DNA of 58,410 nucleotides from positions 1 to 58,410 of the forward strand of contig JAJRSC010000016.1 of the NCBI GenBank assembly GCA_024278985.1, given 5' to 3'. This document shows positions 1 through 19,842 of the stretch, piece after piece (the first letter of the stretch is position 1; every line of letters begins with the position of its first letter). The notes below the pieces were generated by a model. It was not told the origin of the DNA. It worked only from the letters and a program-made list of their open reading frames with translations, and ran no database searches. The position numbers and the translations under genes were made by a program. Origin of the DNA: an archaeon. Lineage in GTDB: Archaea; AGJL01; Methanococci; Methanococcales; Methanocaldococcaceae.

Positions 1-2551
1 TTCTTAAAGCTAGTGGTGTTCCTGTAGTATAGTAGTATGTAGTTGTTTCTTCTGGTAATTCTGTTGCTAATGTTATTGTTACGATAGGATCTTTAACTAA
101 TGTTATTTCCAAAATACCATTTTCATAGATATACCATCCTACTTTACTAGTTATGTCATTTTCTTTTAGTGTTATATTATCTGTACCATTATTTATTGTT
201 ATATTTTTAATATTAAAGTCACCTATAGGAATAACTATTATAGCAAATCCTTTATCTGTAGTATTTGTAACATTTAACCTTATTTCTGAAATAACTTCAT
301 TATTATTTATTTCTGTTTTTACTTCTTTTTTTGTAATATTAAATCCAACTGATATAAGTGGTTTAATACTCTCATTAATTTCTTTAATTACATTGTTGAT
401 GTCATCTTTATTTTTTATAGTTATATATTTTGCTTTTTGTTTTGTTTCATTTAATATTTCAATAACTGTTTTATTAATAGATATATTATTTCCAATAATT
501 GGAATACTTATTTTATCTCCAGTATTAAGGGTTAATATAGTAATATTATACTCATCACCAATAATAAAATCTATATTGTTAATATTATTTTCTATATCAT
601 TGTTAATATTTACATAGTTTTTAATAAACTCTAAATTAACCATTTTATTATCTATATAAACCTTTAAAAATTTGTATCCATATATATCTGATAATACAAC
701 ATTTTTTATTATTGCAGAGTAAGTATTGTTAGTTGTATTAAAGGTAATCTCTGCTAATTCAAAATCTCCAGTTTTTGAAAGATTATATCCACTTATAAAT
801 AATGTATTGTTAGATACATTCCAATAATAAGTACCTATTGCTGTAACATTTAAGACTGATAAATTTTTTAATGAAATGTATATATCATACCCACCTAATG
901 CTCTTTCTCTATTAATTCCACAAACTTCTATTTTTGCTTTTATAATTCCATTATTATCTGAAACTTTATACATTTTTAATAATACTGGAGTTTCAACGAC
1001 TTTAACAGTTTTAACAACTTTGTTATCAGATTCATTTTCTTCTTTAATATTATTTAGAGTATCTGCAACTACAACAATAGTATATGTATTTAACTCATTT
1101 GGTGTCCAATTAAAACTTATAGTTTTTGACTCACCAACATTTAATGAATTTATTATAACACTTCCAAGTTTTTCAGTATTTACATAAACACTGACATCAA
1201 AAGGTTCTTTTATATCTTGATGTCCATTATTTATTATAGTTACATTTATAGGATTATTTACTCTATATATTGCAGGATTATTAACATCTACTTTTAAAAT
1301 TTTAATATTTGGTCCTTCAACTGTAACAATTGCTGGATTTATATAAATTTTATTAAATTTGTAACCATTAGCATCAGATACTTTAATATCTGCTAAGTTA
1401 ATCTCGGAACTACCTATATTTACTGCCTTAAATGTAGCTCTTGCAATTATTGTTGGAGTAGTTATATTTCCATCTAATATACTAAAGATTACTTTTCCAT
1501 TTTCAAAGGTTATATTTTCTAAACCTTCAGATGCATTTATTAAAAACTCAAATTTTGTACAATTTAATATCTCAGGATTATATGTTAAGATTCCATCAAT
1601 CCCTTTAGCAGGTCTTTTATCAGTAATATTATCTAATTTAATATCCACTGTAAATGTATCATTTATTTTTACTAATGTTGATGATGGAATTAATTTTATT
1701 TGTATTGGTTCTTCAATTGCACATAAGGTTTTAACATCCTTATTATTACTTTCATTATATTCTATTATAAGATTATCTGGATCCACTACTGCAACTACTG
1801 TATAATTTCTTTCTTCAGTAGGTATAAATGTAAAGTTTATTTCTTTAGATTCATTAACTTTAAGACCATTAATTACTTTTGTTCCAAGTTTTTCAGTATC
1901 TACAAATACACTAACAGTAATATTATTTGTTATATCACTTTCTCCAACATTTTTTACTAATACTGGAATTATGTTATCTTCATACGCTTTTAGAGTAGTT
2001 TGAACGACATTTACAGTTAAATCATAGGGGGAAAGTATTTTTACATTTGAATTTCTCACAACTAAGTTATTCTTATCTACTTTCCATGTGTAGTCTCCAC
2101 CAGAGTTAGATATTACAGTTCCACTTAAGGATATTGATGTATTATCTGAAGGTTTTAATGCTTTAAACTTTAAAGTTGCTATTGTAAAGTTTCCATAAGG
2201 ATAGTTATTAAACCATGACAAGCTAATATATACTCTTCCATTTTCAACAGAAATATTCTTAAGATTTGCACTATTAGCAATATCACTTAAAACAATATCA
2301 TTTTCAGTTATGTTTAATAAACTTGAATTAAAGTATATATATGTTTCAAATCCACCACAATATCCAGAATAGTTATTATAACCATCTGATATTGTTCCAT
2401 TTGGGACATTTTTTACTTCTAAAGTTAAGTTAAAACTTTGTCCCATCTTTACTACAACATTTGATGGAACTAATTCTACTGTTACATTTTCTCCATAAAC
2501 TCCAATAAAGGATATCATTAAAATTGATAATAATATCAACTTCCACTTCAT
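1..2551 (-). CDS. Secreted scaffoldin-like surface protein with alternating cohesin and CARDB domains; 3' end runs off the window
   Basis: Absent from the ORF track because it has no stop in the window. Manual translation from ATG 2551 (GGTGA upstream) stays open for 850 codons: signal peptide MKWKLILLSILMISFIGVYG, cohesin-like (FNLTLEVKNV..YCGGFETYIYFNSSLL..GNFTIATLKFKAL), CARDB-like (VVDPDNLIIEYNESNN), cohesin-like (KGIDGILTYNPEIL..IARATFKAV), CARDB-like (ADTLNNIKEENESDN), third cohesin-like (LGGYDIYI..FELAEITF). Many N-x-S/T sequons. Confidence 0.88.
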   Translation of the reverse strand, partial: MKWKLILLSILMISFIGVYGENVTVELVPSNVVVKMGQSFNLTLEVKNVPNGTISDGYNNYSGYCGGFETYIYFNSSLLNITENDIVLSDIANSANLKNISVENGRVYISLSWFNNYPYGNFTIATLKFKALKPSDNTSISLSGTVISNSGGDYTWKVDKNNLVVRNSNVKILSPYDLTVNVVQTTLKAYEDNIIPVLVKNVGESDITNNITVSVFVDTEKLGTKVINGLKVNESKEINFTFIPTEERNYTVVAVVDPDNLIIEYNESNNKDVKTLCAIEEPIQIKLIPSSTLVKINDTFTVDIKLDNITDKRPAKGIDGILTYNPEILNCTKFEFLINASEGLENITFENGKVIFSILDGNITTPTIIARATFKAVNIGSSEINLADIKVSDANGYKFNKIYINPAIVTVEGPNIKILKVDVNNPAIYRVNNPINVTIINNGHQDIKEPFDVSVYVNTEKLGSVIINSLNVGESKTISFNWTPNELNTYTIVVVADTLNNIKEENESDNKVVKTVKVVETPVLLKMYKVSDNNGIIKAKIEVCGINRERALGGYDIYISLKNLSVLNVTAIGTYYWNVSNNTLFISGYNLSKTGDFELAEITFNTTNNTYSAIIKNVVLSDIYGYKFLKVYIDNKMVNLEFIKNYVNINNDIENNINNIDFIIGDEYNITILTLNTGDKISIPIIGNNISINKTVIEILNETKQKAKYITIKNKDDINNVIKEINESIKPLISVGFNITKKEVKTEINNNEVISEIRLNVTNTTDKGFAIIVIPIGDFNIKNITINNGTDNITLKENDITSKVGWYIYENGILEITLVKDPIVTITLATELPEETTTYYYTTGTPLALR

Positions 2552-2662
2552 TACTATTCACCATTTTAAAGATTTTGATTTTAATTAAGTAGAATAATAT
2601 AAAAATATTACTTTTTATTTTTTTGTTATTAAAATAGTAATTAAAAATTAAAGTAAGGATAG

Positions 2663-4036
2663 TTATCCTGCAGTATATGGTACTGCTGTATTATTATCAG
2701 GATAATATCTTAAGAAATAGTGTGTAGTTCTACCTTTAAATACTTCTGGATGAATTATTGTTCCTAAATCCCATAAAACATCATCAGTGTTCAACAATCC
2801 CAGTTGCCAGTAGTCATCACTTATACAGAATAACCTACCGTTTTGTACTGCTTTGAAGTACTCATATCCTGGGTGGTCTTCTTTGAATGTTGATAACCAC
2901 TCTGTACTTGATGGTACTACCCATATATCTGCATTCTTAGCTCTTTCTGCAAAGGTTTCATAACTTATACATGCACTTCCAGTTCCTGGAATATCTTTAA
3001 ATATGTAATCTCCATGACAATCTTCCATTATCGCCTTAGCAACGTATGACTGTGCTTTTGGAACATAAGTTCCTCCAAAACTTGGATAATTTTTACCCCA
3101 TGCTACTAATGGTCTGTCTGTATTTCTTGTTAATCTTCTAACATCTAATGATCTCTTTACTATTCTTGTAAAGTATTTTTTTGCAACATCTTCCTTGTTG
3201 TAAAATGCTGCAAACAACTTTACCCATTCACATCTAGCAAGATAGGAATCTTCTAAGTATTCTGCATCAGCGACATAAGTTAAGTTCAACTCTTTACATT
3301 TTTCAATTACTGCGTCTCCACTATATCCTGGATAGACAAATATAACTTGTGGTGAGATATTAAGGATTAAATCATAGTTTGGATTGTATGTTGAACCAAC
3401 ATCAATTATTGAACCATTTTCTAGACCTTCCTCAATATTTTTAAAGTACCACTTATATTGTTTACCCCACATTATTCCTTTTACTGAAGCAATTACTGAA
3501 CCATCATTATTTATCGCTTCCATTAAAGCTATTTCTGTAGAACTCATTACAACAACTCTTTTTAAAGGAACATTAATTACTTTATCATATTTTCCTTTAG
3601 CCCATGAAGGAATTGGTTCAGTTTCATTTTTTAATAAAAATCTTTGTCCAGTAGCATCTACTACTATTTTATATGCATATGGTTCTCCATTATAGGGATT
3701 TACTTCAATACCATTTTTATCGTAGTAGGTTATCTTTATATTTTTAGCGTAGACGATAGGTTCTCTTAATTTTTGATAATTATCAAAGAGATAGACCACA
3801 TCTGCAATATCAATTGAACCATCTGCATTTATATCCCCATCTTCCAAACTAAGGTTTCTATGTTTGAAAAGATAGACTACATCTGCAATATTAATTGAAC
3901 CATCTCCATTTACATCTCCGAACCTATGGTTATAGTCTCCTGGAGTAATATCTTTCCATGTTAATGCATTTACATCTGAATATATAGGTATAAATATTAA
4001 AAAAGCTATAGCTATATACCAAATATTTTTTATCAT
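2663..4036 (-). CDS. Dockerin domain fused to a TroA/BtuF-class (cobalamin/iron-complex) ABC substrate-binding protein
   Basis: Two dockerin Ca-loop repeats, GDVNGDGSINIADVVYL and GDINADGSIDIADVVYL, then a helical-backbone binding-protein fold (VPLKRVVVMSSTEIA, NYDLILNISPQVIF, YLARCEWVKLFAAFY, FKAVQNGRLF). Likely start ATG 4036 after GGTGA; track start is 4048. Confidence 0.88.
   Translation of the reverse strand: MIKNIWYIAIAFLIFIPIYSDVNALTWKDITPGDYNHRFGDVNGDGSINIADVVYLFKHRNLSLEDGDINADGSIDIADVVYLFDNYQKLREPIVYAKNIKITYYDKNGIEVNPYNGEPYAYKIVVDATGQRFLLKNETEPIPSWAKGKYDKVINVPLKRVVVMSSTEIALMEAINNDGSVIASVKGIMWGKQYKWYFKNIEEGLENGSIIDVGSTYNPNYDLILNISPQVIFVYPGYSGDAVIEKCKELNLTYVADAEYLEDSYLARCEWVKLFAAFYNKEDVAKKYFTRIVKRSLDVRRLTRNTDRPLVAWGKNYPSFGGTYVPKAQSYVAKAIMEDCHGDYIFKDIPGTGSACISYETFAERAKNADIWVVPSSTEWLSTFKEDHPGYEYFKAVQNGRLFCISDDYWQLGLLNTDDVLWDLGTIIHPEVFKGRTTHYFLRYYPDNNTAVPYTAG
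3790..3920 (-). repeat. Internal duplication encoding the two dockerin repeats
   Basis: Near-identical DNA blocks GATGG(A/T)-containing 'atagac(c/t)acatctgcaatat(c/t)aattgaaccatct' at about 3790-3835 and 3871-3915. Confidence 0.85.
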
Positions 4037-4118
4037 TAATATCACCATTTGGAATTTTAAATATTTAAAATTAATACTGTAAAGATATTATGTCATAAAT
4101 TATATTTTAAAGGATTAC

Positions 4119-4151
4119 AATAAAACTATATAAAATAAAACTATATAAAAT
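4119..4151. repeat. 15-bp tandem duplication of a TATA-like element upstream of the dockerin gene
   Basis: aataaaactatataa repeated twice; the minus strand reads TTTTATATA twice. Confidence 0.6.
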
Positions 4152-4229
4152 TTATGGTAAACTTTATTATTAATAAAATAATCTTTAAAATATAAAAATA
4201 TATTATTTGCTTTTAAATCATAAATTTTA

Positions 4230-4664
4230 TTATTTTATTTTTTCTATTCTATTTTCTGGGAAAATTATAGCATTGTTCTCACAACACATATAGGAACAGG
4301 CATTGCAGTTAATTATACAGTTATATGGATATTTAACAATAACTCTACCATTTTCTATATCATAAACACCTTTAGGGCAAAATTCAACACATTTCTTACA
4401 ATTTTTGCATTTTTCATAATTTATCTTTGGGAACCATGGGATTTCTTTCCTCTTCTTCCCATTAAATTCCTCATACTCTATTTCCATAACTGCATCATAA
4501 AGCGTTTTATATAATCTTTTATTTGGTTCTCTAACAAGTTTTGTGACTTCTTCATAAGTATTATATATTTCATCCATTCCCAATTCTTTTGAGAGTTTTT
4601 TAATCTCCAAATTTAAAATCATAAATTTTCTAATTTTCTTTAGTAGTTCTTTTTTCTTTTCCAT
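4230..4664 (-). CDS. 2x[4Fe-4S] ferredoxin-domain protein with N-terminal helical extension
   Basis: CKNCKKCVEFCP and CIINCNACSYMCC motifs; divergent from cobN. Confidence 0.85.
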   Translation of the reverse strand: MEKKKELLKKIRKFMILNLEIKKLSKELGMDEIYNTYEEVTKLVREPNKRLYKTLYDAVMEIEYEEFNGKKRKEIPWFPKINYEKCKNCKKCVEFCPKGVYDIENGRVIVKYPYNCIINCNACSYMCCENNAIIFPENRIEKIK

Positions 4665-4808
4665 CTTTTCACATTATTTAAGTTTTAAAAGTCATAAAAA
4701 AATCTACAAAAATTTTAATTATGTACCATGGATGATATATTAATATTAGTTGAAACTTTATAAATATTAATTGAAAATTTTTTAATTTAATTTTAATGGT
4801 GAAAATTA

Positions 4809-7800
4809 ATGATAAAAATAGGGTTTGTTTCTACAGTAGATAGTGATGATTTGGTTTTTGAAGAGGCATATAAAGAAGTAAAAAAGTATGGAATTGAATT
4901 TAAAATTTTGGATTATAAATGTAACGAGAAAGAGTTTAAAGATTTTTTAGAGTTTATTAAAGATGCTAACATTGTATTTACAAAACTTATGGTAGGAAAA
5001 AAAGCCTTTAAATACTTTGATGAATTAAAAGCATTTGTTGATAAACGTAATATTCCATTTCTTCCACTCCCTACATTAAATGAAGTTCATCCAGATTTGG
5101 ATGATGCTACAACTGTAAGTGAGGAAGTTAAATTAAAGGTTATCAAATATTTGGGATATGAAGGAATTGAAAATTATAAAAATCTCTTATTATATTTAGC
5201 AAATAAATTTGGAGATAAAAATATTCCTTATAAAGAACCAAAGCCCATGCCATGGCAAGGAATTTATTATAAAGGAAAATACTTTGAAACCTTAAATAAC
5301 TATTTAAATTATTTAAAAAAAATTGATAAAAAAATAGATGGAAAACCAATTATTGGAATTTTATTTTACAGAAATTGGTTTATTGCAAATAATATTGATT
5401 ATCTTAACGATTTAATTAATGTTATTGAGAATAAAGGAGCAATACCTGTTGCTGTCTTCACATCACATTTAAAAAATGAATTGGGGGCTATTGGGACATT
5501 AGAAGTGTTTAAAAAATTTTTTTATAAAGATGGCAAACCATTTATTCATACTTTAATAAACACAACTATGTTTACCTTATCTATGGGAGTTAAGGCAGAT
5601 ATCCTAAAAGATGAACCTGAATTTTTAAAAGAGTTAAATGTCCCAATCTTGCAGGGAATTATAAGTACTGGATTTATTGAAGATTGGGAAAAATCAATAT
5701 CTGGAATAAATCCAATTGATTTAGTTATAGGAATGGCAATGCCAGAATTTGATGGAGCAATAATACATTTCCCAATAGGTGGAAAGAAAAAGGTTAAGGA
5801 TGGAGATGTTGGAGTTCCAATTATAAAATATAAAGCAATAAAAGATAGAACTGAGAAAATAGTTAATTTAGCATTGAAATATGCAGATTTAAAGTTAAAA
5901 CCAAACAAAGAGAAAAGAATTGCAATAATTTTCCATAACTATCCACCAAGGAATGATAAAATAGCAAGTGCTTTTGGATTAGATAGTCCTGAAAGTGTTG
6001 TCAATATATTAAAAAAGTTAAAAAATAGAGGTTTTATAGTCGATGAAATTCCAAAAAATGGAACTGAACTAATTAAAAAAATGTTAAATTATGCAACAAA
6101 TGATAAGAGATTTTTAACTGAAGAGATGATAAAAAAAGCTGTAGGAAAAATAAAAAAAGAAGATTATGAGAAATGGTTTAATTCTCTCTCTAATAAAGTT
6201 AAAGAAGAATTAATTAAAAATTGGGGGGAAATTCCAGGAGAAGTTATGAATTTTGATAATAACTTAATTATTCCAGGAATAATTAATGGAAATGTTTTTA
6301 TCTCAGTTCAACCACCAAGGGGCTTTGGGGAAAATCCTTCCGCCATTTATCATTCTCCAGATATGCCACCTACTCATTACTACATTGCTTTTTATAAATG
6401 GATTAAAGAAGTTTTTAAAGCAGATGCTATAATGCATATAGGAAAACATGGAAGTTTAGAATGGTTGCCAGGAAAAGGTGCAGGTTTATCAAGAGATTGC
6501 TATCCAGATATTTGTATGGAATTGCCAAACATCTATCCATATATTGTAAATAATCCTGGAGAAGGAACTCAAGCAAAGAGAAGAAGTTATGCAACAATTA
6601 TAAGCCATTTAATTCCACCAATGACAATATCTGAGTTGTATGGAGATTTAGAAGAATTAGAAAAGAATATTGATGAATACTATGAAACTGAAAATAAAGA
6701 AAAGAAAGAGTTTTTAAAGAAAGAAATTTTGAATAAAATTAAAGAATTAAAGCTGAATGAGGACTTGATGGATGGGAAAGTTATAGATGAGGAAATTAGT
6801 GAAAAAAACTTTGATAAATTGTTAAATAAAATCCATGATTATTTAGAGGAATTAAAAAATAGGCAGATAAATGAAGGATTGCATATAATGGGAGAACCTT
6901 TGGAAGAGGAGAAGTTAATTAATATGATATTTATGATTATCAGATATCAGTTTAACTACTTGGAGATTCTATCTAAAATTTTAGGGTATGATTGGAATAA
7001 ATTAAATGAAGAAAAAGGAAAAAAACATAAAATTATTGATAAAATAAATAAAATTGGAATAAATCTAATAAAAGAATATATGAAATATAATTTTGATGAA
7101 AATAAAATTGAGGAATTAAAAACCATAAAACCTAATTCTGAACTAAAAGAAGTTTTAAAAATTATATCAAAAATATATAGAAATTTAATGATGGTAAATG
7201 AAGAGATTGAAAATGCAGTAAATGCCTTAGAAGGAAAATATGTTCCTCCAAAAATAGCAGGAGCACCAACAAAAGATATAAACTGCCTCCCGACAGGAAG
7301 AAACTTCTATTCTTGCAACCCTCAAGAAATACCAACAAAATCTGCTTATGAAATGGGAAAGAAATTAGCTAATGATTTAATTAATAAGTATTTAAAAGAA
7401 GAGGGAAAGTATCCTGAGTATATTGGAATTATTGTCTGGGGTTCTCCTACAATGAGAACAAAGGGAGATGATATTGGGGAGATTTTATATTTATTAGGGG
7501 TTAAACCAGTTTGGAATAAGATGGGGAGAGTTGTTGGTTTAGAAGTCATACCATTAGAAGAGTTAGGAAGGCCAAGAATTGATGTAACTTTAAGAATTAG
7601 TGGTTTATTTAGGGATACTTTTCCACAAGTTATTGATTTAATAGATGAGGCAATAAAAATGGTTGCAAACTTAGATGAGCCAGATGACCTAAATTTTGTT
7701 AAAAAACATTACAAGCAGGAAGTTATGGAAAAAATAAAGAAAGGAATTGATGAAAAAACAGCAAGAGAAACATCTCTATATAGAATATTTGGATGTAAAC

Positions 7801-8498
7801 CTGGATGTTATGGAGCTGGAGTTGCAGATTTATTAACTGAGAAAAATTGGAAATCATTGGAGGATTTGGCAAAGGTTTATGTTGAATGGGGAGGTTATGT
7901 TTATGGAAAAGGAATTCATGGTATTGAGGCAAAGGAAGAATTTATTAAAAGGTTATCAAAGATTGAGCTAACTGTTAAAAATGAAGATAGCCAAGAATGG
8001 GACATTTTTGAGGGAGATGATTTCAATAGTTATCATGGTGGGATGATTGCAGCTGTAACTTTCTACTCTGGTAAGCAACCAAAAAGTTATATTGGAGATA
8101 CTTCAAATCCAAATAAGATAAAAACAAAACATTTGAAAGAGGAAGGAAAGCAGATATTTAGAACAAAAATAATGAATCCAAAGTGGATTGAAGGGTTGAA
8201 GAAGCATGGCTATAAGGGGGCAAGTGATTTCTCAAAGTATATTGACCATATCTTTCAATGGGATGCAACCTCAAATATAATAGATGACTGGATGTATCAA
8301 AAAATTGCTGAAAATTATGTTTTTGATAAAGAAATGGAAGAGTTCTTTAAAGAAAACAATCCTTATGCCTTATTAAACATAACTGAAAGGTTATTAGAAG
8401 CTATAGAAAGGGGAATGTGGAAGACAGATGAAGAAACAAAAGAAAAGTTAAGAAAAAAATACTTAGAAATTGAGGGAATGATAGAAGAGAAATTATAA
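4809..8498 (+). CDS. cobN: Cobaltochelatase subunit CobN
   Basis: 1229 aa; HIGKHGSLEWLPGK, NPGEGTQAKRR, LPTGRNFYS, LGRPRIDVTLRISGLFRD, GFGENP motifs. Confidence 0.95.
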   Translation: MIKIGFVSTVDSDDLVFEEAYKEVKKYGIEFKILDYKCNEKEFKDFLEFIKDANIVFTKLMVGKKAFKYFDELKAFVDKRNIPFLPLPTLNEVHPDLDDATTVSEEVKLKVIKYLGYEGIENYKNLLLYLANKFGDKNIPYKEPKPMPWQGIYYKGKYFETLNNYLNYLKKIDKKIDGKPIIGILFYRNWFIANNIDYLNDLINVIENKGAIPVAVFTSHLKNELGAIGTLEVFKKFFYKDGKPFIHTLINTTMFTLSMGVKADILKDEPEFLKELNVPILQGIISTGFIEDWEKSISGINPIDLVIGMAMPEFDGAIIHFPIGGKKKVKDGDVGVPIIKYKAIKDRTEKIVNLALKYADLKLKPNKEKRIAIIFHNYPPRNDKIASAFGLDSPESVVNILKKLKNRGFIVDEIPKNGTELIKKMLNYATNDKRFLTEEMIKKAVGKIKKEDYEKWFNSLSNKVKEELIKNWGEIPGEVMNFDNNLIIPGIINGNVFISVQPPRGFGENPSAIYHSPDMPPTHYYIAFYKWIKEVFKADAIMHIGKHGSLEWLPGKGAGLSRDCYPDICMELPNIYPYIVNNPGEGTQAKRRSYATIISHLIPPMTISELYGDLEELEKNIDEYYETENKEKKEFLKKEILNKIKELKLNEDLMDGKVIDEEISEKNFDKLLNKIHDYLEELKNRQINEGLHIMGEPLEEEKLINMIFMIIRYQFNYLEILSKILGYDWNKLNEEKGKKHKIIDKINKIGINLIKEYMKYNFDENKIEELKTIKPNSELKEVLKIISKIYRNLMMVNEEIENAVNALEGKYVPPKIAGAPTKDINCLPTGRNFYSCNPQEIPTKSAYEMGKKLANDLINKYLKEEGKYPEYIGIIVWGSPTMRTKGDDIGEILYLLGVKPVWNKMGRVVGLEVIPLEELGRPRIDVTLRISGLFRDTFPQVIDLIDEAIKMVANLDEPDDLNFVKKHYKQEVMEKIKKGIDEKTARETSLYRIFGCKPGCYGAGVADLLTEKNWKSLEDLAKVYVEWGGYVYGKGIHGIEAKEEFIKRLSKIELTVKNEDSQEWDIFEGDDFNSYHGGMIAAVTFYSGKQPKSYIGDTSNPNKIKTKHLKEEGKQIFRTKIMNPKWIEGLKKHGYKGASDFSKYIDHIFQWDATSNIIDDWMYQKIAENYVFDKEMEEFFKENNPYALLNITERLLEAIERGMWKTDEETKEKLRKKYLEIEGMIEEKL

Positions 8499-8524
8499 AC
8501 TATTATAATTATAGTTGTGAAATT

Positions 8525-9385
8525 ATGAAATATCTCATTTTAAAAATAACAAATAGATGTAATTTAAACTGTGTTTATTGTTATGCAATTAATAAAAATA
8601 ACAGAGATATGGATTTTGAAACAGCAAAGAATGCCATTGATTATATTTTAAAAATGGATGATAAGTTAAAAATTCAATTTACTGGTGGAGAACCACTTTT
8701 AAATTTTGATTTGATTAAAAAAATAATAGATTATTGCAATGAAAACTATTCCAATAAATATATTTCCTATGCAATACAAACAAATGGAACCCTACTAAAT
8801 GAAAAAATTATTAAAAAAATTAAAAATTTAAATATAAAAATTGGTATTAGTATAGATGGTTTGGAGGTAAATGATAAGCTAAGACCCTACAAAAACAAAA
8901 ATCCTTCAACAATAGATACATTAAAAGGAATATATCTTTTAAAAGAATATAATATTCCTTTTGGTGTAACAATAGTTGTAACAAATAAAAATTTACCATA
9001 TATAAAAGAATTTGTTGAATATTTAATGGCTTTAGGTATTAAAAGCATAAGTTTTGATTTATTAAAACCAAAGAGAAAAGAACATTTAAAACTATTGCCT
9101 GATAAAGATGAATTTAATAAAATTTTAAATGAATTAAAGAATTATCCAATATATATTAAAAATATAGTAAGAAATGAAAAGTTAAAATATTATAAAAAAT
9201 ACTGCTTTTTAAATACTGGAGATTTACTCTTTGTTAATGAATATGGAGACATTTTTCCCTGTCCAACATTGGAAGGATATTTTTATATAGGAAATATAAA
9301 TAAATCTAATAAAAAAAATTTAAAATTATTTAAAGTTGATTGTAGTTATTGTTTTGCAAGAAAATATTTAATGAATCAATTTTAA
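8525..9385 (+). CDS. Radical SAM protein with C-terminal Cys-containing (twitch/SPASM-like) region
   Basis: CNLNCVYC, FTGGEPLL, QTNGTLL, SIDG, GDIFPC. Confidence 0.9.
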   Translation: MKYLILKITNRCNLNCVYCYAINKNNRDMDFETAKNAIDYILKMDDKLKIQFTGGEPLLNFDLIKKIIDYCNENYSNKYISYAIQTNGTLLNEKIIKKIKNLNIKIGISIDGLEVNDKLRPYKNKNPSTIDTLKGIYLLKEYNIPFGVTIVVTNKNLPYIKEFVEYLMALGIKSISFDLLKPKRKEHLKLLPDKDEFNKILNELKNYPIYIKNIVRNEKLKYYKKYCFLNTGDLLFVNEYGDIFPCPTLEGYFYIGNINKSNKKNLKLFKVDCSYCFARKYLMNQF

Positions 9386-9395
9386 GGGATAAACA

Positions 9396-10145
9396 ATGAT
9401 TGGAGTTTCAACAAGCATATTTTTAAATTCTAATAAAAAGTTAGAAAATGCTCTTTCCTTTTTAGAGAATAAAACAAAATATGTAGAACTTATTTGTGAT
9501 GGATACTTAAATGTTATGGAACATACTGAAATTCCTCTATCATACAATTTAAAATATACATTACATTGTCCTCTTACAGATATGAACCTATCATCTTTTA
9601 GAGAGAAAGTTAGAAAAACAAGTATAGAGATTGTTGAAGATATTTTAAAAGTTGCTGATGTTGTTAATGCCTCTTTAATTGTACTACATCCAGGATATTG
9701 TGTATTTAAAGAGGACTATTTAAAGGCATTAAATTCTCTAAAAAAATCTTTATATGAATTAAATAAACTTCAAAATGAATATTCTATACAAATAACAATA
9801 GAGAATATGCCATCCTATAGTATGTTTATGTTTAGAGAACCAAATGAAATTATTGATACTTTAGGAGATATTGGAATAACTTTTGATATTGGCCATTCTT
9901 TTTTAAATAAAAATATTGAAAAATTTTTAGATAATAACCTTATAAAAAAAATTTATCACATTCATATCCATGATAACAATGGAGTATTTGATGAACATCT
10001 ATGTATAGGAAAGGGCAAGATTGAATTTGATAAATATAAAAAGAAGTTAAAAAAAATAAATTGTATAAAAATGATAGAAATGCAGTATAAAAGTATTGAT
10101 GATTTAGATTTATGTATTGATAGAGTTAAAAGATTGTTCAGATAA
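9396..10145 (+). CDS. Xylose isomerase-like/AP endonuclease family 2 TIM-barrel protein
   Basis: TLHCP, VLHPG, IENMP, TFDIGH, HIHIHDNNG..DEHLCIGKG. Confidence 0.85.
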   Translation: MIGVSTSIFLNSNKKLENALSFLENKTKYVELICDGYLNVMEHTEIPLSYNLKYTLHCPLTDMNLSSFREKVRKTSIEIVEDILKVADVVNASLIVLHPGYCVFKEDYLKALNSLKKSLYELNKLQNEYSIQITIENMPSYSMFMFREPNEIIDTLGDIGITFDIGHSFLNKNIEKFLDNNLIKKIYHIHIHDNNGVFDEHLCIGKGKIEFDKYKKKLKKINCIKMIEMQYKSIDDLDLCIDRVKRLFR

Positions 10146-10196
10146 TAAATTTCTTTTTATACAATTTAAGATTATTATAAAAAGAAACTCTTTTAG

Positions 10197-10982
10197 GTGA
10201 TCAAATTGGAGGATGTTTTAAAAATGGATGATTGGAGAGCATATAAAATTTCCCATACTGTTGAAATTAATGGAGATATTGAAAAAACAAAAACCTTAAT
10301 AATAGAGTTTGAAAAAAGAAGAAAAGTTTTATCAACAAGAGAAGGTTTTAAGATAGTTAAATATGTTGGTAACCATTCAATCCCTGTACTATTTTGGGAT
10401 AAGGTTCATAATTATAAGGATTATGAAGACCATGTCTTAAAGAAAATTGGAATTAAAAAAGAGGATATTGCTTTATTATCAACTGGAGCTGATATGGATA
10501 ATTTAGCAGTTGCTAAAGAAGAATTTGATGAGTTTTATACAATTGCTTTTACAACTGCAGGAGCAAAGTATAATGCTGTTAGATTAGGAGATGAAGAAAC
10601 AGATTATATTGAAAAGGATTTCAAAACATACAAAATTGAAAATGGAAAATTAATTCCTAAAGAAGAAGTAGGAACAGTTAATATTATTTTAATAACTAAT
10701 GCAAACTTAACTGATGGAGCAATGGCAAGAGCAATTATAACTATAACTGAGGCAAAAACAAATGCTTTTCAAGAGTTGGATATAAGAAGTACTAAACATC
10801 CAGAACTTCAAGCTACAGGGACAGGAACTGATAATATTATTATTGTTAAAGGTTTTGGTAGATGTGTTAATTATACTGGAGGACATACAAAGATTGGTGA
10901 AATGATAGCGAAATGTGTTAAAAAATCCGTTATAGAGGCATTAATAAAGCAAGACAATATAAAAATTAATAAAAATTTTTAA
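10197..10982 (+). CDS. cbiZ: Adenosylcobinamide amidohydrolase (corrinoid salvage)
   Basis: LLSTGADMDN, TTAGAKYNA, GTVNIIL, AIITITEAKT, ATGTGTD, GGHTKIGE. Confidence 0.88.
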   Translation: MIKLEDVLKMDDWRAYKISHTVEINGDIEKTKTLIIEFEKRRKVLSTREGFKIVKYVGNHSIPVLFWDKVHNYKDYEDHVLKKIGIKKEDIALLSTGADMDNLAVAKEEFDEFYTIAFTTAGAKYNAVRLGDEETDYIEKDFKTYKIENGKLIPKEEVGTVNIILITNANLTDGAMARAIITITEAKTNAFQELDIRSTKHPELQATGTGTDNIIIVKGFGRCVNYTGGHTKIGEMIAKCVKKSVIEALIKQDNIKINKNF

Positions 10983-11079
10983 TTAAATAATAATGTAATA
11001 TAGCAAATATTTAAGTGATAAAATATAATTATAAAAATTATTAAGTAAGTTTATCATTTTATTCATTATGTATTAAGAT

Positions 11080-11110
11080 AAAAAATAGTAAATAATATAT
11101 ACTATTTTTT
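11080..11110. promoter_or_regulatory. Inverted repeat upstream of the cohesin operon (possible operator)
   Basis: aaaaaatagta-N9-tactatttttt; AT-rich, so it may be chance. Confidence 0.3.
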
Positions 11111-11175
11111 TAATTATTTTTAAGTTATAATAAATATTTTTAATAATAATAAAATAACATTTAATAGGGGTAAGT

Positions 11176-11712
11176 ATGAAAAAAAAATTAATTCTATTGT
11201 TAGTTCTTATGTTTCAAATATGTTTTGCAGTTGATATATCAGTAAATGCTCCTTCAAAAGTTCAGCAAGGAGAAATTTTTACATTAGAAGTTTATGCTAA
11301 AAATGTATCAAATTGTGGAGGATTTGAATGTGATTTATATGTTTCAAATAATTTAAAAATATTAAATGTTACATCCTACAATGTTGGAGCAGATTACAAT
11401 TTAACAATAAATAAAAATAGTTTTGCAGCAATACAGTATGCTTTTTTGACAAATCCAAAGAATGAGGACTTTAAAGTTGGAGAATTTAAAATAAAAGCTC
11501 TAAAGAGTGGCAATGCAACAATAGTAGTTAAAGCTGTTGCCTCAGATAGTGAAGGAAATGCAATTAAAATTCCAGAGAAAGTTATAAATCTTAAAGTTGA
11601 AAGTAATCAAGTAAATGAAGAAAAAAAAGAAACAGGTTTTTCTTTTAATATTGTAGTGGTTATATTTGCAATTATTTTAGTTGGTATATTGATATATATG
11701 ATTAGAAAGTGA
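11176..11712 (+). CDS. Single-cohesin protein with signal peptide and C-terminal membrane anchor
   Basis: QGEIFTLEVYAKNVSNCGGFECDLY..VGEFKIKALKSGNATIVV..ASDSEG; C-terminal hydrophobic helix plus RK tail. Confidence 0.8.
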   Translation: MKKKLILLLVLMFQICFAVDISVNAPSKVQQGEIFTLEVYAKNVSNCGGFECDLYVSNNLKILNVTSYNVGADYNLTINKNSFAAIQYAFLTNPKNEDFKVGEFKIKALKSGNATIVVKAVASDSEGNAIKIPEKVINLKVESNQVNEEKKETGFSFNIVVVIFAIILVGILIYMIRK

Positions 11713-11718
11713 TTAACT

Positions 11719-12555
11719 ATGTATAGATATATAATTTATTTTTTAATTCCAATGTTTATATTGTTAAATGTTGTTTATAGTGAAGATATCTATGTTAGAT
11801 TAATTCCTGAAGAAGTAGTATCTGAAGGAAATATAATTAAATTTAATATATCTATTGAGAACATTCCAAAGGTCGGTGATATTAAATATTATGATGGGAC
11901 GGAGGATGGAGGTTGTAAAGGAGTTGATATTTATATTAACTATTCTCCTGATTATTTAAAACCTTATGGGTTTAACTGGAGTGATATTTGTAAAAATGAA
12001 AAAATAAAATCATACGAATTTAAAAATGGTACATTTGTATTAAGTATCTTATTTAATAAACCTATTGAAGAAAATTTCTACATTGGGGAAATTATGTTTA
12101 TTCCTACTAAAAAAGGTGAGACATATGTTAATATATCTGGAGTTATTAGTTCAGCTTTAGGAATAAAATATGATGGTATTCAAGACTATTATGATTATTA
12201 TACAAAAACATTTAAAAAGTATCCTAAAACCAAATTTTTTGGAGCAAAGGTTATTATAAAAGAAATTAATGAGACTAATTTAACAAATACAAGTTTAAAA
12301 CTAAGTGAAACTATAGAAGAGAAAAATTTTGAGAATATCAAATCAACATCAACTTCTAACATAATTAATAGAATCTATATAAATCCACAAGTAAGAAAAC
12401 CAGAAGTTATTGTTAAAGAAATAAATATAACTGAGTATAGGCCAATAGTAAAAATAATTGTAAATAAAAAAAATGATTATGACATATCAAATTTATTTTT
12501 TGGAATAATTTTAGGAATTATATTTGGATTTATTTTTTCAAAATTTAAGAAATAA
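11719..12555 (+). CDS. Cohesin-like surface protein with C-terminal membrane anchor
   Basis: FNISIENIP..GGCKGVDIYINYSPDYL..IGEIMFIPTKKGETYVNISG; S/T-rich linker; TM helix plus KFKK tail. Confidence 0.7.
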   Translation: MYRYIIYFLIPMFILLNVVYSEDIYVRLIPEEVVSEGNIIKFNISIENIPKVGDIKYYDGTEDGGCKGVDIYINYSPDYLKPYGFNWSDICKNEKIKSYEFKNGTFVLSILFNKPIEENFYIGEIMFIPTKKGETYVNISGVISSALGIKYDGIQDYYDYYTKTFKKYPKTKFFGAKVIIKEINETNLTNTSLKLSETIEEKNFENIKSTSTSNIINRIYINPQVRKPEVIVKEINITEYRPIVKIIVNKKNDYDISNLFFGIILGIIFGFIFSKFKK

Positions 12556-12570
12556 AATTAGGGATAATTA

Positions 12571-14604
12571 ATGAAATTAAAGATAAAAGTAAAGATTTTA
12601 ATATTAATTTTATTTTTAGTATTACAAATAAATTTTGGAATTAATGTTTTATTAATTCCCAATAATATCAGTGTAAAAGAATATGATTCTTTTAATATAA
12701 CATTAATTGTAAATACTAACGAACAATTAGGAGGATTTGAGGATATTATTTATATTCCTGATGGGTTAAATATAACTAAAGATGATATCATTTTAAGTGA
12801 TACTGCTAATAGTGCAAATCTTAAGGATGTCTCTATAGAAAATGGTAAAATAGATATTAGTTTAGTATGGTTTAATAATTATCCATCTGGAAACTTTACT
12901 ATTGCAACACTTAAATTTAAAACATTAAATAATGGGACATATAAAATAATTCAAAGTCCTACTTTATCAGATACAAATGGTAATGAAATAAAAAATGTAT
13001 CCTATAATTCAGTTGTAGTAAATATTATTGGGTTAAATTCAACTATTGTAGATATAATTCCTATAAATCCAACAATAAATAATAGTTTTGATGTTCTTGT
13101 TTCAATAAAAAATGCAAAAGAAAATATTTACAATATTAGTGGAAGTATCTACTATCCAAATTTAAAAATTGTAAATTTAGATTTTTATTATTTTGAGGAT
13201 AATATTACTAATGTTAATTTGTGGTATAATAATGATAGTTTAAGTTTTTTTGTTAAATTAAATACCTCAAAAGATATATTTAACTTAATGAAATTAACAT
13301 TTTTTACAAGTAAAGAAGGTAGTTATATTATTAACGCAACTATAAAAATAAATGGAAAAAATGTAATTGTAAATCCTGCATGTTTTACACTTGGAAATAT
13401 AACTGTTGAAAAATATGTAGGTTTTCCAATAAACGAAAAAAATATTTCTTATGGAGATAGTGGATTTATATATATTAAGGCAGAAAATATTGATTCGAAT
13501 ATATCAGAAATTAGAGGGAATATATCATATAACTCAACATTATTGAATGTTAGTGATATATCTACAAGTTTACAAACTCTTGAAAAAAATTTGTCTATTA
13601 AAAATAATACTATTAATTTTTATATTAAAATAAATGGAAGTGTAAGTAATAATTTTAATATATTATCTTTTTGGATAAGACCACTTATAAATAGGAATAT
13701 AACAACAGAACTTAAGATTTTAAATATATCTTTATTAGATATAAATGGAAGTAATGTAAATGTTCCAGTAAAGGATAGTTTAATTATCCATATAATTCCC
13801 AAAAATCTTACAGAAAATATTTCAAATATAAATAATACACCACCAAAGGTATATTTCGTATTTGAAGTTATTGACGATTATACTGTGAAATTTTATTCTT
13901 TATGTTATGATAAAGAAAATAATACTCTGTACTATTATTGGAATTTTGGAGATAACACTACATCAACAGATATAAATCCAACTCATACATATAAAAAAGA
14001 TGGACTTTATATTGTTAAGTTATATGTTAATGACTCATTTGGAGCTATTGGATATGATGAATGTTTAATTAATATAAAAAAATTAAATCCAATAAATATT
14101 ACACTTAGCAACACTACAATATATCCAACTAATCATAACATAACAATATATTGTAATATAACTTTAAAAAATCCTTTTTCTAAAAGGATTTATGGAGATA
14201 TTCAGTTTTTAGATTATGCTAATTATAAACCAAACAAAACATGTATAACTTTTGAATTATTACCTAATGAAACAAAAGTATTTTCAGTTCCTATAAATAT
14301 CTCAGGTCCTACAGAGATAAAGGGATATGTTGAATATTATATTCCAAATAAAAGAGTAATTAAATATGTTTGGAATTTTAAAAAAGATATTAATGTCTTA
14401 AAGATAAATAAGATAAGTTATAGAGATTACTATTATAATATTTCACTTAACCAATCAAAAGTTATTATAAAAATTAATAAAATTTTAAAAAATTATACTA
14501 TTACAAAAAATATAGATATTGAAAATAATAATCTAAGTATTTTAATGTATTTAATAGGGTTTTTAATTGGCTTTTTAATAATTTATAAAAAGAAAAAATT
14601 TTAA
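12571..14604 (+). CDS. Multi-cohesin plus PKD-domain surface protein with C-terminal membrane anchor
   Basis: About three cohesin-like units (LGGFEDIIY..TIATLKFK; ISGSIYY..LMKLTF; IRGNISYNSTLL..ILSFWIRP), PKD motif YYWNFGDNTTSTDINPTHTYKKDGLYIVKLYV, TM helix plus KKKKF. Confidence 0.82.
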   Translation: MKLKIKVKILILILFLVLQINFGINVLLIPNNISVKEYDSFNITLIVNTNEQLGGFEDIIYIPDGLNITKDDIILSDTANSANLKDVSIENGKIDISLVWFNNYPSGNFTIATLKFKTLNNGTYKIIQSPTLSDTNGNEIKNVSYNSVVVNIIGLNSTIVDIIPINPTINNSFDVLVSIKNAKENIYNISGSIYYPNLKIVNLDFYYFEDNITNVNLWYNNDSLSFFVKLNTSKDIFNLMKLTFFTSKEGSYIINATIKINGKNVIVNPACFTLGNITVEKYVGFPINEKNISYGDSGFIYIKAENIDSNISEIRGNISYNSTLLNVSDISTSLQTLEKNLSIKNNTINFYIKINGSVSNNFNILSFWIRPLINRNITTELKILNISLLDINGSNVNVPVKDSLIIHIIPKNLTENISNINNTPPKVYFVFEVIDDYTVKFYSLCYDKENNTLYYYWNFGDNTTSTDINPTHTYKKDGLYIVKLYVNDSFGAIGYDECLINIKKLNPINITLSNTTIYPTNHNITIYCNITLKNPFSKRIYGDIQFLDYANYKPNKTCITFELLPNETKVFSVPINISGPTEIKGYVEYYIPNKRVIKYVWNFKKDINVLKINKISYRDYYYNISLNQSKVIIKINKILKNYTITKNIDIENNNLSILMYLIGFLIGFLIIYKKKKF

Positions 14605-14773: not shown

Positions 14774-15826
14774 TTATTTTTTATCTAAATTTTCTGAATA
14801 TATTGTCCATAATGCTATTAATGCTGCAGGTATTGCATGCTCTGTTGCAAAGGTCATTTTAGGGGATAAGTCTATAATATAATCTGCAAATCTAAATAAA
14901 CCCCTTGGTATTCCTTCTCTTGACCCACAGAAAATAATAATTTCTCTCTTACCCTTTAAATCTTTAGATAATTTATCTTTAATTTTCCCTAATTCTTCCC
15001 CTTTTGGGTCAGTTATTATTAATAATCTGTTTTTTCTTCTTTTATCTCTAATAACTTGATATAAATCCTGAACACTTACCTTAACCTTTCTAATATCAAA
15101 AGGATATGCTCTTTTTTGTATTTCATACCTTGAATTTTGTCCTATTTTAACACCTTTTATAAACTCCTCTAATTCATAAGCATCTACTTTTTCTTTTGGA
15201 GCAATTATCAACTCCTTAATTTCAAATGCTTGGGCACTTCTTCCAATAGCTTCCCCAAATTTTCTACAAACCTTTTTTTCTCCTAAATATGGAAGTTGAA
15301 CAACTATAACTCTCCTAAATAACTTTCTGGCATTCTCTTTTTCCTCAGAGTATTTTTTATTTTTAAACTCATCCTTTCCTTCAATGCAAATATATGCCTT
15401 ATCTTTAAAAATCTCCACATAAACAACCTTATCAGGATTATTTAAATCTACTTTAGCATTTGTTAAATCTTTTATCTTAGCCCCTAAAACCTTGTTTATA
15501 TCTATTGAATTATAGTCCTTTTCTCCTCTTTTTATTGTTTCAACTGCATATTTATCATTTTCATTAATATAATCTTTTATTTTTTCAGCCATATTAACAA
15601 TGGAATCAAAGTCAGCAGATGTTTCAAAATCTACCTTTAAAACTCTCTCAACTTCTGGGATACTTAATATTTTATCTCTTATATCTTTACTACTTTCAAC
15701 TATAACAACACCATGAAAACCATCTGGAGAAGGAATTGCTTTAAACTCATCTTTAACTAATGTTTTTAAATGATTTATAACTATATTTTCAAATCCCTTT
15801 TGTGTTTTTATTATAAACTTTATCAT
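14774..15826 (-). CDS. THUMP-domain plus SPOUT RNA methyltransferase
   Basis: THUMP (VDLNNPDKVVYVEIF); SPOUT knot motifs (ITDPKG, CGSREGIPRG, DLSPKMTFATE). Confidence 0.85.
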   Translation of the reverse strand: MIKFIIKTQKGFENIVINHLKTLVKDEFKAIPSPDGFHGVVIVESSKDIRDKILSIPEVERVLKVDFETSADFDSIVNMAEKIKDYINENDKYAVETIKRGEKDYNSIDINKVLGAKIKDLTNAKVDLNNPDKVVYVEIFKDKAYICIEGKDEFKNKKYSEEKENARKLFRRVIVVQLPYLGEKKVCRKFGEAIGRSAQAFEIKELIIAPKEKVDAYELEEFIKGVKIGQNSRYEIQKRAYPFDIRKVKVSVQDLYQVIRDKRRKNRLLIITDPKGEELGKIKDKLSKDLKGKREIIIFCGSREGIPRGLFRFADYIIDLSPKMTFATEHAIPAALIALWTIYSENLDKK

Positions 15827-16913
15827 CAATCTCACCATTTGCTGTTAGCATTAATATTAACACTACCAAAAAACCAAAATTTATACCAATTTCACAATAT
15901 CCTAATAATAAAGCAGAGTATATTGCATAAATTTTTCTATCTCCTTCATACAATATTTTAGATGCTAAGCCTATTAAAAAAGCTATAACCACTCCAAAAA
16001 GATTAAAATCCATATAGACTGTTCCAAACATTGTAGTTGTATAATTAACATTTTTATTAAATAATAACTCTCCTATTAATCTTTCACCATTAGGGGTAAA
16101 TAATATTTTACCATATGTTATAATCCCACTTTCAACTATTTTTTTAAAAACATATAAATCAAAATATGCTCTATAAGATAAAAATTCATAAAAATTTATC
16201 TTCCAATTTTGAGGAGAAAAATAAACAATAGTCCAACCCATAATATTAAGAACAATAAATAATAAGATAATATAAATAAAAAGATTTCTCTTAATTTTTT
16301 TATAGACAATATAACTAACAACTAACAATAATATTCCAACTTTATAACCCATAAGGGTTAAAAGTATAAATGATATTATAACCCTATATTTACTCTCTAA
16401 ACTACCATATATTAAACCACCCATAGATATTAATCTTAATGGTTCTGTATTAATGGCCATTCTTACATTGTAGTCAAAAAGAGGAATTGCATGATATTTA
16501 ATAATTAATAATATAAAGGACATTAAACCAATATAAAACATAAAATCTGTGAATATTTTTTTGTCCCTTAGTTTTTTATATAATTTAATAACTACAAATA
16601 AAAATATTAAATAAATCAAAGATAAAAATATTGAGTTTGTAGAATAATATGCCCCATAAAAAGAAAATATAAAAAGAAGTCCATATAAAATATATTTATT
16701 TATTTTAATATTTTTAATTATAAAAAAAGGTAAAGTAAAACTTAAAATAAAGATACTTACAATAATAAATAGTTTTAATATAGTTAAATATACTAACCTA
16801 TAATAATATGGGACTGCTAATAAAAATATTGCCAAATATCCAAAAATAACAATAATATAAGGAGAAAAAATATCTATTTCTTTAATTTTTTCCTTAATAA
16901 GATTATTAAACAT
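15789..16913 (-). CDS. Polytopic membrane protein, oligosaccharide repeat-unit polymerase (Wzy)-like
   Basis: About 10 TM helices; IPLF, LMGYK, TTTMFG..YMDF motifs; paralog of the neighbouring gene. Confidence 0.6.
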   Translation of the reverse strand: MFNNLIKEKIKEIDIFSPYIIVIFGYLAIFLLAVPYYYRLVYLTILKLFIIVSIFILSFTLPFFIIKNIKINKYILYGLLFIFSFYGAYYSTNSIFLSLIYLIFLFVVIKLYKKLRDKKIFTDFMFYIGLMSFILLIIKYHAIPLFDYNVRMAINTEPLRLISMGGLIYGSLESKYRVIISFILLTLMGYKVGILLLVVSYIVYKKIKRNLFIYIILLFIVLNIMGWTIVYFSPQNWKINFYEFLSYRAYFDLYVFKKIVESGIITYGKILFTPNGERLIGELLFNKNVNYTTTMFGTVYMDFNLFGVVIAFLIGLASKILYEGDRKIYAIYSALLLGYCEIGINFGFLVVLILMLTANGEIDDKVYNKNTKGI

Positions 16914-17890: not shown

Positions 17891-17896
17891 AAAGTT

Positions 17897-18637: not shown

Positions 18638-18643
18638 AGCTTT

Positions 18644-19486: not shown

Positions 19487-19749
19487 TCTACCACCCTTAT
19501 CGGAGCGTTTTGTAATTCACTTTCATATAGAACAACAATATCCTTTATTGACTTAACAACTCTATAAGGAATTAATACTCTTTTTACTCCTTCTCTCATT
19601 AAAATAGAATTTTCAAATGGTTCAACTTCAATAGACACCAATTTACCAGTTTGTTCATCAAAAACTATATCTTTTAATATTCCCAAAACACTACCTTCAT
19701 CTCCAACAACTCTCTTATCAAATAATATCTTACCAGGAATTTTTCCCAT
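19483..19749 (-). CDS. PRC-barrel domain protein
   Basis: KRVVGDEGSVLGILKDIVFDEQTGKL..IPYRVVKSIKDIVVL. Confidence 0.88.
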   Translation of the reverse strand: MGKIPGKILFDKRVVGDEGSVLGILKDIVFDEQTGKLVSIEVEPFENSILMREGVKRVLIPYRVVKSIKDIVVLYESELQNAPIRVVE

Positions 19750-19842
19750 ATTTATCTCCTCACTTATTTATTAAGATTTAATTTATTAAGGTTAAATAAT
19801 AAATATTTTTTCATTTTAAAAATAAACATTATACAAATATAC

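Follow-up and report, generated by a model that had tools for sequence, protein, structure and literature searches.

A non-cellulosomal cohesin-dockerin system proposed to anchor the binding proteins of a FecCD-type importer in Methanococcales

In bacterial cellulosomes, for example that of Clostridium thermocellum, enzymes carrying dockerins are held by scaffoldins built from cohesins. Transporter binding proteins of Gram-positive bacteria and archaea are anchored as lipoproteins, and vitamin B12 is taken up by the importer BtuFCD, with BtuF of E. coli as the binding protein and a BtuFCD counterpart in the archaeon Halobacterium. The organisation of cellulosomes has been summarised by Chadwick et al. 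(2022, PMC9012536); the same paper, in the part considered here, reports anaerobic methanotrophic (ANME) archaea with dockerins on NikA/OppA- and TroA-type binding proteins alongside multi-cohesin proteins. Here we describe a locus of cohesin and dockerin genes on a contig of 58,410 nucleotides (JAJRSC010000016.1, contig C18 of the assembly; this whole stretch is referred to as the window) from an archaeon whose genome sequence of 1.107 Mb in 30 contigs is 86% complete and has ~25% G+C. The nearest named homologs of the window proteins are from Methanocaldococcus and other Methanococcales. With moderate confidence, we propose that the locus encodes a non-cellulosomal system that anchors the binding proteins of a FecCD-type importer on the cell envelope, with a corrinoid or tetrapyrrole as ligand and linked enzymes for its processing.

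Like a cellulosome, the system has tandem cohesin modules, here predicted beta-sandwiches, on scaffolds, a duplicated calcium-binding dockerin, and both cell-bound anchoring and multi-cohesin scaffolds. It differs in its cargo, two transporter binding proteins with N-terminal dockerins instead of glycoside hydrolases, and in its predicted anchors, where membrane helices and an S-layer-like domain of archaeal type take the place of SLH domains or sortase. The original prediction for this DNA had described a cellulosome-like surface scaffold without glycoside hydrolases. In agreement with the latter, Pfam found neither a glycoside hydrolase nor a carbohydrate-binding module (CBM) among the 18 open reading frames (ORFs) of positions 1-20323, the rest of the genome not having been scanned. 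The ANME proteins are closer, being archaeal, non-cellulosomal and built with dockerins on periplasmic-type binding proteins. However, the ANME paper (PMC9012536) lists domains only in the part considered, whereas here the cargo is of the Peripla_BP_2 type, the cohesin genes are operon-linked to an importer and to cobN and cbiZ, and dockerin and lipobox replace one another.

The cohesin genes are embedded in the cluster of an ATP-binding cassette (ABC) importer with two dockerin-tagged binding proteins, two FecCD permeases and one ATPase. The window carries cohA (2..2551, minus strand), encoding a scaffoldin-like secreted protein of which 850 aa are present before truncation at the contig start, the binding protein gene dockSBP1 (2663..4048, minus strand; its product is called SBP1), and on the plus strand cohB (11176..11712), cohC (11719..12555) and cohD (12571..14604). 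The remaining importer genes lie outside the window. A dockerin-tagged paralog, SBP2, is encoded on contig C28 directly 5' of the two FecCD permease genes, and the ABC ATPase (391 aa) is encoded on contig C1 next to a ChlI-like AAA+ gene. In complete relatives the parts adjoin one another. The order is ATPase, cohD, cohC, cohB and then SBP1, cohA, SBP2, permease 1, permease 2 in three of them (G001, G014 and G039). G004 and G025 have all of this within 20 kb, together with a ferredoxin gene (fdx), cobN, in part a radical S-adenosylmethionine (radical SAM) gene, a TIM barrel gene and cbiZ, and in most genomes cohesin and importer genes are interleaved. In the window, the cobN operon is placed between SBP1 and cohB, and fdx, cobN, the radical SAM gene, the CbiR-like TIM barrel gene and cbiZ are all bracketed by cohesin and dockerin genes, as originally described for the cobN operon.

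SBP1 consists of a signal peptide, an N-terminal dockerin (3758-3928) and a class III solute-binding domain of the Peripla_BP_2 family. The dockerin contains two 12-residue calcium loops (D-x-N-x-D-G-x-I-x-x-x-D) with the same helix motif after each, and the two repeats are nearly identical to each other. These two F-hand repeats together with the family match identify the N-terminus as a type I dockerin. When it was compared with solved structures, the top matches were dockerins (E 0.01). Moreover, 21 dockerin columns, including all calcium-loop positions, are invariant over 12 sequences. The binding domain scored 72.8 bits with Peripla_BP_2 (PF01497, cut-off 27.5) and 122 bits with profile A3. 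In the AlphaFold2 model of SBP1 (predicted local distance difference test (pLDDT) 93.3, predicted template modelling score 0.89), the dockerin contributes helices at residues 54-62 and 81-95, and the domain that follows consists of two lobes connected through a long hinge helix (286-307), an arrangement characteristic of class III binding proteins. With the PF01497 score and the partner FecCD permeases, this assigns SBP1 to class III (cluster A). The importer resembles BtuFCD in that its binding protein is of class III, with one long helix as the hinge, and in its FecCD-family permeases and ABC ATPase; distant homologs occur in B12-riboswitch loci. It differs from BtuFCD in having two unlike permeases, two binding proteins, a dockerin tether and an ATPase of 381-391 aa, and its binding protein is weakly similar to E. 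coli BtuF (E 7.4e-5).

A genome-wide motif scan combined with Pfam found only two dockerin proteins, SBP1 and SBP2. As both dockerins are on Peripla_BP_2 binding proteins, the system falls outside the definition of a cellulosome. A single dockerin cargo of the TroA/BtuF class had originally been predicted. SBP1 is indeed the only one in the window and is a transporter binding protein of the BtuF/FhuD family, but SBP2 is a second one elsewhere in the genome, and the cargo does not belong to the TroA family in the strict sense. A further FecCD-type importer, the third, is located at C3:42671-46641 (L050); its 369-aa Peripla_BP_2 protein was unmatched in the genome-wide dockerin scans, and an O-methyltransferase-like gene lies between its binding-protein and permease genes. 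The ATPase of the cohesin-linked importer (381-391 aa; C1:1243-2415 and L007:5199-6341) has an extra C-terminal part without annotation in comparison to the ABC_tran protein of ~250 aa in the C3 system. In other Methanococcales (L072 of G025, L074 of G004, L073 of G026), alkaline phosphatases end in a tail that weakly resembles a dockerin (17-18 bits, below the cut-off), and one giant CARDB protein in this set has a clear dockerin (34.5 bits). Dockerin cargo in some genomes is thus not limited to binding proteins.

To find cohesins, we used a second-round hidden Markov model (HMM) built from 106 Methanococcales modules of related loci (E<=0.01). In the whole genome it detected exactly eight modules, all within this locus, which sharpens the earlier estimate of about eight in four secreted proteins. 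Three are in cohA (minus strand; 2057-2488, 1322-1708 and 635-976; E 1.4e-40, 2.8e-38 and 1.2e-23) and three in cohD (plus strand; 12640-13020, 13045-13338, which is weak, and 13435-13782; E 7.3e-32, 2.3e-5 and 1.5e-13). CohB has a signal peptide and one cohesin (11233-11577; E 3e-25), CohC one cohesin (11785-12180; E 6e-36); a linker, short in CohB, leads in both to a predicted membrane helix at the C-terminus. CohA additionally has two CARDB domains (Pfam CARDB, 1.7e-29). CohD continues after its cohesin-like modules with a PKD domain (PKD_4, 50.5 bits) and another beta domain, and it ends in a predicted membrane helix.

Profile comparisons agree with these assignments. When profile A1, made of six window modules, was compared with solved structures, the nine best matches were all cohesins (E 0.002-0.12). 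With hhalign, an alignment of cohB orthologs matched the A1 profile at 99.6%, module 3 of cohD matched a cohesin profile at 93% (E 2.9e-7), and modules 2 and 3 of cohD matched each other at 85% (E 6e-6). Profiles were required for this, as single-sequence phmmer among the modules did not connect those of cohB, cohC and modules 2 and 3 of cohD. The AlphaFold2 model of CohD is all-beta (mean pLDDT 79.5) apart from a helix at 655-676; each of its three modules is predicted to be all-beta with ~9-10 strands (pLDDT ~90, 70-88 and 84-95 for modules 1-3), cohesins being nine-stranded beta-sandwiches of the jelly-roll type. The gathering cut-off of Pfam Cohesin (PF00963, 24.1 bits) is exceeded by cohA orthologs (52.6, 39.4 and 35.1 bits), and 12 of 21 long homologs have a precomputed PF00963 annotation. 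Despite these marks, the names given to cohA orthologs in public records refer to no more than their CARDB or APHP domains. The cohesin modules are kept across four genera.

Furthermore, we searched 40 Methanococcales genomes for both partners. The cohesin profile and the dockerin profile each matched 27 genomes; both partners occur in 26 and neither in 12, which leaves G017 with a dockerin only and G030 (64% complete) with cohesins only. Pfam Dockerin_1 alone found 20 of the 27 dockerin-positive genomes, and all 20 are also cohesin-positive. Dockerin-bearing ORFs in the 40 genomes are nearly all 420-475 aa long, which is the size of the binding proteins. Within the genus of the window, nine genomes have both partners and eight have neither, and the loss is strictly joint. 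In eight SBP1 orthologs (64-70% identity), the place of the dockerin is taken by a signal peptide with a cysteine that resembles a lipobox. In a tree of 55 binding proteins, from which three fragments shorter than 380 aa were excluded, these form one clade (Shimodaira-Hasegawa-like approximate likelihood ratio test support of 100) that is nested inside the dockerin-bearing SBP1 clade. They belong to one Methanocaldococcus clade, and their loci and genomes are without cohesins.

The dockerin is thus interchangeable with a lipobox. This exchange, accompanied by loss of the cohesins, is the strongest argument that the cohesin-dockerin pair most likely is a non-covalent anchor of binding proteins, and judging from the sequences we consider an anchoring role of the pair likely. 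Because the cohesin genes are embedded in the importer cluster and the dockerin can be exchanged for a lipobox, the core role is most likely the anchoring of binding proteins and not a multi-enzyme scaffold as in cellulosomes. Of the scaffold originally proposed, the cohesin and dockerin modules are real and its role is revised; the first interpretation, in which many copies of a corrinoid- or metal-binding protein would be displayed, is supported in part. The task is the same as that of lipoprotein anchors, namely to keep a binding protein at the membrane in cells without an outer membrane, and the sister clade contains direct lipobox orthologs. In contrast to lipoproteins, the proposed anchoring would be non-covalent, modular and possibly exchangeable, with eight docking sites on two envelope layers.

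The cohesin proteins appear to be attached to the envelope in two ways. C-terminal hydrophobic segments are found at residues 152-178 of CohB and 255-277 of CohC, and CohD has the modelled helix mentioned above. The 850 residues of CohA contain no C-terminal hydrophobic helix, and CohA orthologs end in S_layer_C. An ORF at the end of contig C5 encodes S_layer_C and repeats at its start the final 8 residues of cohA, and a 26-nt overlap joins the contig ends; cohA therefore probably continues on C5 into an S_layer_C domain. The cohesin proteins are rich in N-glycosylation sequons, with 41 N-x-S/T sites in cohA and 42 in cohD. The truncation of cohA at the contig start (window 1-200) is due to an assembly repeat. 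An identical tail of 141 nt is found on the reverse strand of C18 and at the end of C17, and the C5 end overlaps each of them by 26 nt (C5:74944-75427; C17:84905-85835), suggesting that two paralogous genes share one collapsed 3' end. In Methanothermococcus-type loci (L010-L015), cohB ends in a short amphipathic segment finishing with Gly-Gly instead of a hydrophobic helix, which may be another kind of anchor or a processing signal.

In the mechanism that we infer, SBP1 and SBP2 would be exported, each with a calcium-type dockerin at the mature N-terminus that would plug non-covalently into one of the eight cohesin modules. The five modules on the membrane-helix proteins CohB, CohC and CohD would hold a binding protein near the permease, and the three on CohA, with its S-layer-like end, would locate it within the S-layer or beneath it. 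The dockerin-cohesin pair would replace the lipid-modified cysteine of the sister-clade orthologs. Since the two dockerin repeats hardly differ, the dockerin might conceivably bind in both orientations and move from one scaffold to another. The imported ligand, most likely a corrinoid or related tetrapyrrole, would be processed in the cytoplasm by CbiZ, the CbiR-like TIM barrel protein, CobN, the radical SAM enzyme and the ferredoxin. A more elaborate version, which we put forward tentatively and hold to be rather doubtful, is a two-tier uptake relay in which dockerin-tagged corrinoid-binding proteins dock reversibly on CohA in the S-layer for capture and on CohB, CohC and CohD at the membrane for delivery beside the permease, coupled to a module of CbiZ, CbiR-like, radical SAM, ferredoxin and CobN proteins that re-tailors and re- or de-metalates corrinoids. 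If true, such a relay would be a functional analogue of the Gram-negative route through an outer-membrane receptor and periplasmic BtuF, and it would give archaeal CobN homologs a role.

The bracketed enzyme genes are fdx (4230..4664, minus strand; a ferredoxin-like protein with two [4Fe-4S] clusters matching Pfam Fer4 families), which is divergent from cobN (4809..8498), and on the plus strand with cobN the genes for a radical SAM/SPASM-type enzyme (8525..9385; Pfam Radical_SAM, 88.9 bits), an AP_endonuc_2 TIM barrel protein (9396..10145; Pfam, 102 bits) and the adenosylcobinamide amidohydrolase CbiZ (10197..10982). The large subunit of a class I chelatase encoded by cobN matches the CobN equivalog model, with 1055 bits for TIGR02257 (cut-off 822). 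CobN chelatases work with AAA+/vWA partners (CobS/CobT or ChlI/ChlD), to which the ChlI-like AAA+ gene on C1 may correspond. Its nearest solved chain is CobN of M. tuberculosis (773 bits), followed by ChlH (547) and HmuS (442), and the fdx-cobN pair is kept in G001, G004, G006, G025, G039 and L007. CbiZ belongs to its family with 180.1 bits for PF01955 (cut-off 27). The best NCBIfam match of the TIM barrel protein is CbiR (NF041277; 54.2 bits, E 1.4e-14), below the 105-bit cut-off and hence outside the equivalog. Its gene adjoins cbiZ in the same orientation, and this adjacency together with the best match agrees with the looser working definition of CbiR in the portion of PMC7733943 considered here. 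We regard it as a candidate CbiR-like cobamide phosphodiesterase on the basis of its sequence. All NCBIfam matches of the radical SAM protein are below cut-off, the best being PapB, anSME, AhbD and NirJ-like; a homolog adjoins CobN in the bacterial locus L020 (2e-35).

The genome also encodes a small CbiX-type chelatase. In a complete relative (L053; G004:C1:1266677-1270300), the cobN ortholog is in five reading-frame pieces and the radical SAM gene in two, with intact neighbours (TIM barrel, cbiZ, cohesin and importer genes); the broken cobN could be decay or sequencing error. In the part considered of a paper on the heme de-chelatase HmuS (PMC12583661), the function of archaeal CobN homologs is called unclear and without linkage to cob genes. 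In contrast, the archaeal cobN described here is linked to cbiZ, a CbiR-like gene and an uptake system. CobN may either insert cobalt into a corrinoid that has been salvaged or remove a metal.

The linkage recurs across the order. In 17 of the 27 cohesin-positive genomes, belonging to four genera, a dockerin binding-protein or cohesin gene has a cobN ortholog no more than 10 kb away, and cbiZ is as close in 8 of 27. The synteny on which the original prediction depended recurs for cobN, less often for cbiZ, and extends to a bacterial locus; an early reading of ours that cobN linkage is not conserved was overturned by these order-wide searches. Among the other ten genomes, two (G020 and G037) have only a paralog nearby, four have cobN far away, and four show contig breaks or absence. 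The paralog in G020 and G037 is a different CobN encoded with a ChlI-like ATPase beside the importer. The cbiZ and CbiR-like genes are linked to cobN in the window, in G004, G013 and G025, and in the bacterial locus. The latter, L020, is from a deltaproteobacterial metagenome-assembled genome and is the closest bacterial locus, with the gene order TonB receptor, CbiZ, binding protein, TonB receptor, binding protein, radical SAM, CobN. Compared with their counterparts in the window, CbiZ is 38% identical, the binding protein 34%, the radical SAM protein 26% and CobN 40% over its full length. That L020 mirrors the archaeal module hints at transfer between domains. Its CbiZ, with 444 aa, has an extra C-terminal part.

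In addition, 18 of 24 loci of distant homologs of the binding protein were scanned for riboswitches, and 12 of the 18 have a cobalamin riboswitch within ~2.5 kb upstream. In L021, for instance, the riboswitch drives a TonB receptor gene divergent from a binding protein-FecCD-ATPase operon. Taking gene linkage, riboswitches and the CbiR-like match of the TIM barrel protein together, a corrinoid or tetrapyrrole is, by a small preference, the ligand that the sequence data suggest.

Several observations weigh against the proposed anchoring and ligand. The Pfam matches of the window proteins are marginal. In two scans with Dockerin_1 (PF00404, cut-off 22.9 bits) SBP1 scored 20.6 and 23.0 bits, at or under the cut-off, and the cohesin proteins lie at or below that of PF00963 (18.8-24 bits), with 24.0 bits for module 2 of cohA (24.4 with neighbours), 14.4 for its module 1 and 18.8-20.1 for cohB. 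The 40 genomes are related to one another, so that the counts overstate independence. G017, which is 99% complete, has a dockerin binding protein and no cohesin detectable by either profile; the gene lies beside an ABC ATPase and a ChlI-like gene (L070, G017:C1:434000-449000). As to the ligand, cobN is distant from the cluster in G013, G015, G026 and G036, cbiZ is nearby in less than a third of the cohesin-positive genomes, and the cohesin-negative G007 has a cobN ortholog 33 kb off. The riboswitch is on the opposite strand in 11 of the 12 loci and on the same strand in one; the binding-protein gene therefore neighbours a regulated operon and may itself lie outside its control. The binding-protein profile fits solved iron and siderophore binders (1.7e-12 to 1e-5) better than E. 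coli BtuF, public homologs are named as Fe3+-hydroxamate type, and the importer has two unlike permeases. Two different permeases are typical of siderophore systems, and BtuC is a homodimer.

The ligand data are also compatible with the same anchoring serving the import of a metal chelate or metallo-tetrapyrrole as a source of iron, cobalt or nickel, in which CobN would act as an HmuS-like de-chelatase with the ferredoxin as reductant and no cofactor would be salvaged. The CbiX-type chelatase makes CobN unnecessary for the anaerobic cobamide pathway, the ferredoxin-cobN pairing is conserved, iron and siderophore binders give the best binding-protein profile scores, and the CobN paralog with its ChlI-like ATPase stands by the importer in G020 and G037. 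HmuS, a CobN homolog, strips iron from heme in Bacteroidota, according to the same part of the paper that calls the function of archaeal homologs unclear (PMC12583661). There, HmuS and BtuS de-chelatases are likewise CobN-family proteins encoded beside a tetrapyrrole uptake system and needing a reductant. However, the window protein scores with true CobN, being far nearer to it than to HmuS and passing the equivalog cut-off, and its linked genes are not hmu genes but encode CbiZ and a CbiR-like enzyme, which act on cobamide side chains and not on metals. We therefore think that use as a metal source is unlikely.

The joint loss of cohesins and dockerins also bears on two readings without a transport anchor. 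If the cohesin proteins served chiefly as adhesins or as structural parts of the S-layer, in contacts between cells or with minerals, the dockerin would be incidental or would attach the binding protein without a role in transport. Surface adhesins typically show features present here, namely CARDB and PKD domains, an S-layer-like tail and a high density of N-glycosylation sequons; cohesin-dockerin proteins of ANME archaea and partner bacteria are discussed as adhesion or partner-recognition factors in the parts considered of PMC9012536 and PMC10553843, and the phosphatase tails and the giant CARDB protein of other Methanococcales fit as well. Such a role is nevertheless improbable, as cohesin and importer genes are interleaved in most genomes, cohesins disappear exactly where the binding protein gained a lipobox, and the only two dockerins of this genome are on binding proteins. 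The marginal Pfam scores, the weak module 2 of cohD and the lone dockerin of G017 would all be expected of diverged relics that no longer pair, with the binding proteins held otherwise and the linkage being historical. The invariant calcium-loop and other dockerin columns, the conservation of cohesin modules in four genera and the strictly joint loss within the genus make this highly improbable. Anchoring of the importer's binding proteins thus remains the interpretation that we prefer.

Downstream of cohD, positions 14774-20323 encode a THUMP/SPOUT methylase, two O-antigen-polymerase-like membrane proteins, a TrmB-like regulator, dapF and others. The two polymerase-like proteins (PF01901) are in tandem at 15789-17890 and flank the cluster, and a PF01901 homolog is also found 3' of a cohA-like gene in two Methanothermococcus loci (L013:9850-10497; L018:3050-4663). 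An Rfam scan of the window gave nothing except one tRNA gene at 38652-38725.

Cohesin-dockerin systems as such and dockerin-tagged binding proteins in ANME archaea are already known. In the literature on dockerins and cohesins in archaea, we found the Methanococcales system not described and only the ANME domain listing, whose supplementary tables may list similar proteins. What appears to be new is the operon-level coupling of cohesins to an importer, the exchange of dockerin and lipobox, the two kinds of anchoring scaffold, and the link to a CbiZ-radical SAM-CobN module shared with a bacterium. Archaeal cohesin-dockerin modules have so far had no established role, and this locus offers a concrete and testable setting, with a cargo of two proteins, eight docking modules, a natural control clade with lipoboxes and an enzyme set in common with a bacterial uptake locus. 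The same setting would make the question of CobN in anaerobic archaea testable, as raised in the part considered of PMC12583661. If binding and ligand are confirmed, the locus would provide a thermostable, orthogonal cohesin-dockerin pair for protein display, and it would represent a new way in which the binding proteins of transporters are held and positioned in cells that lack an outer membrane.

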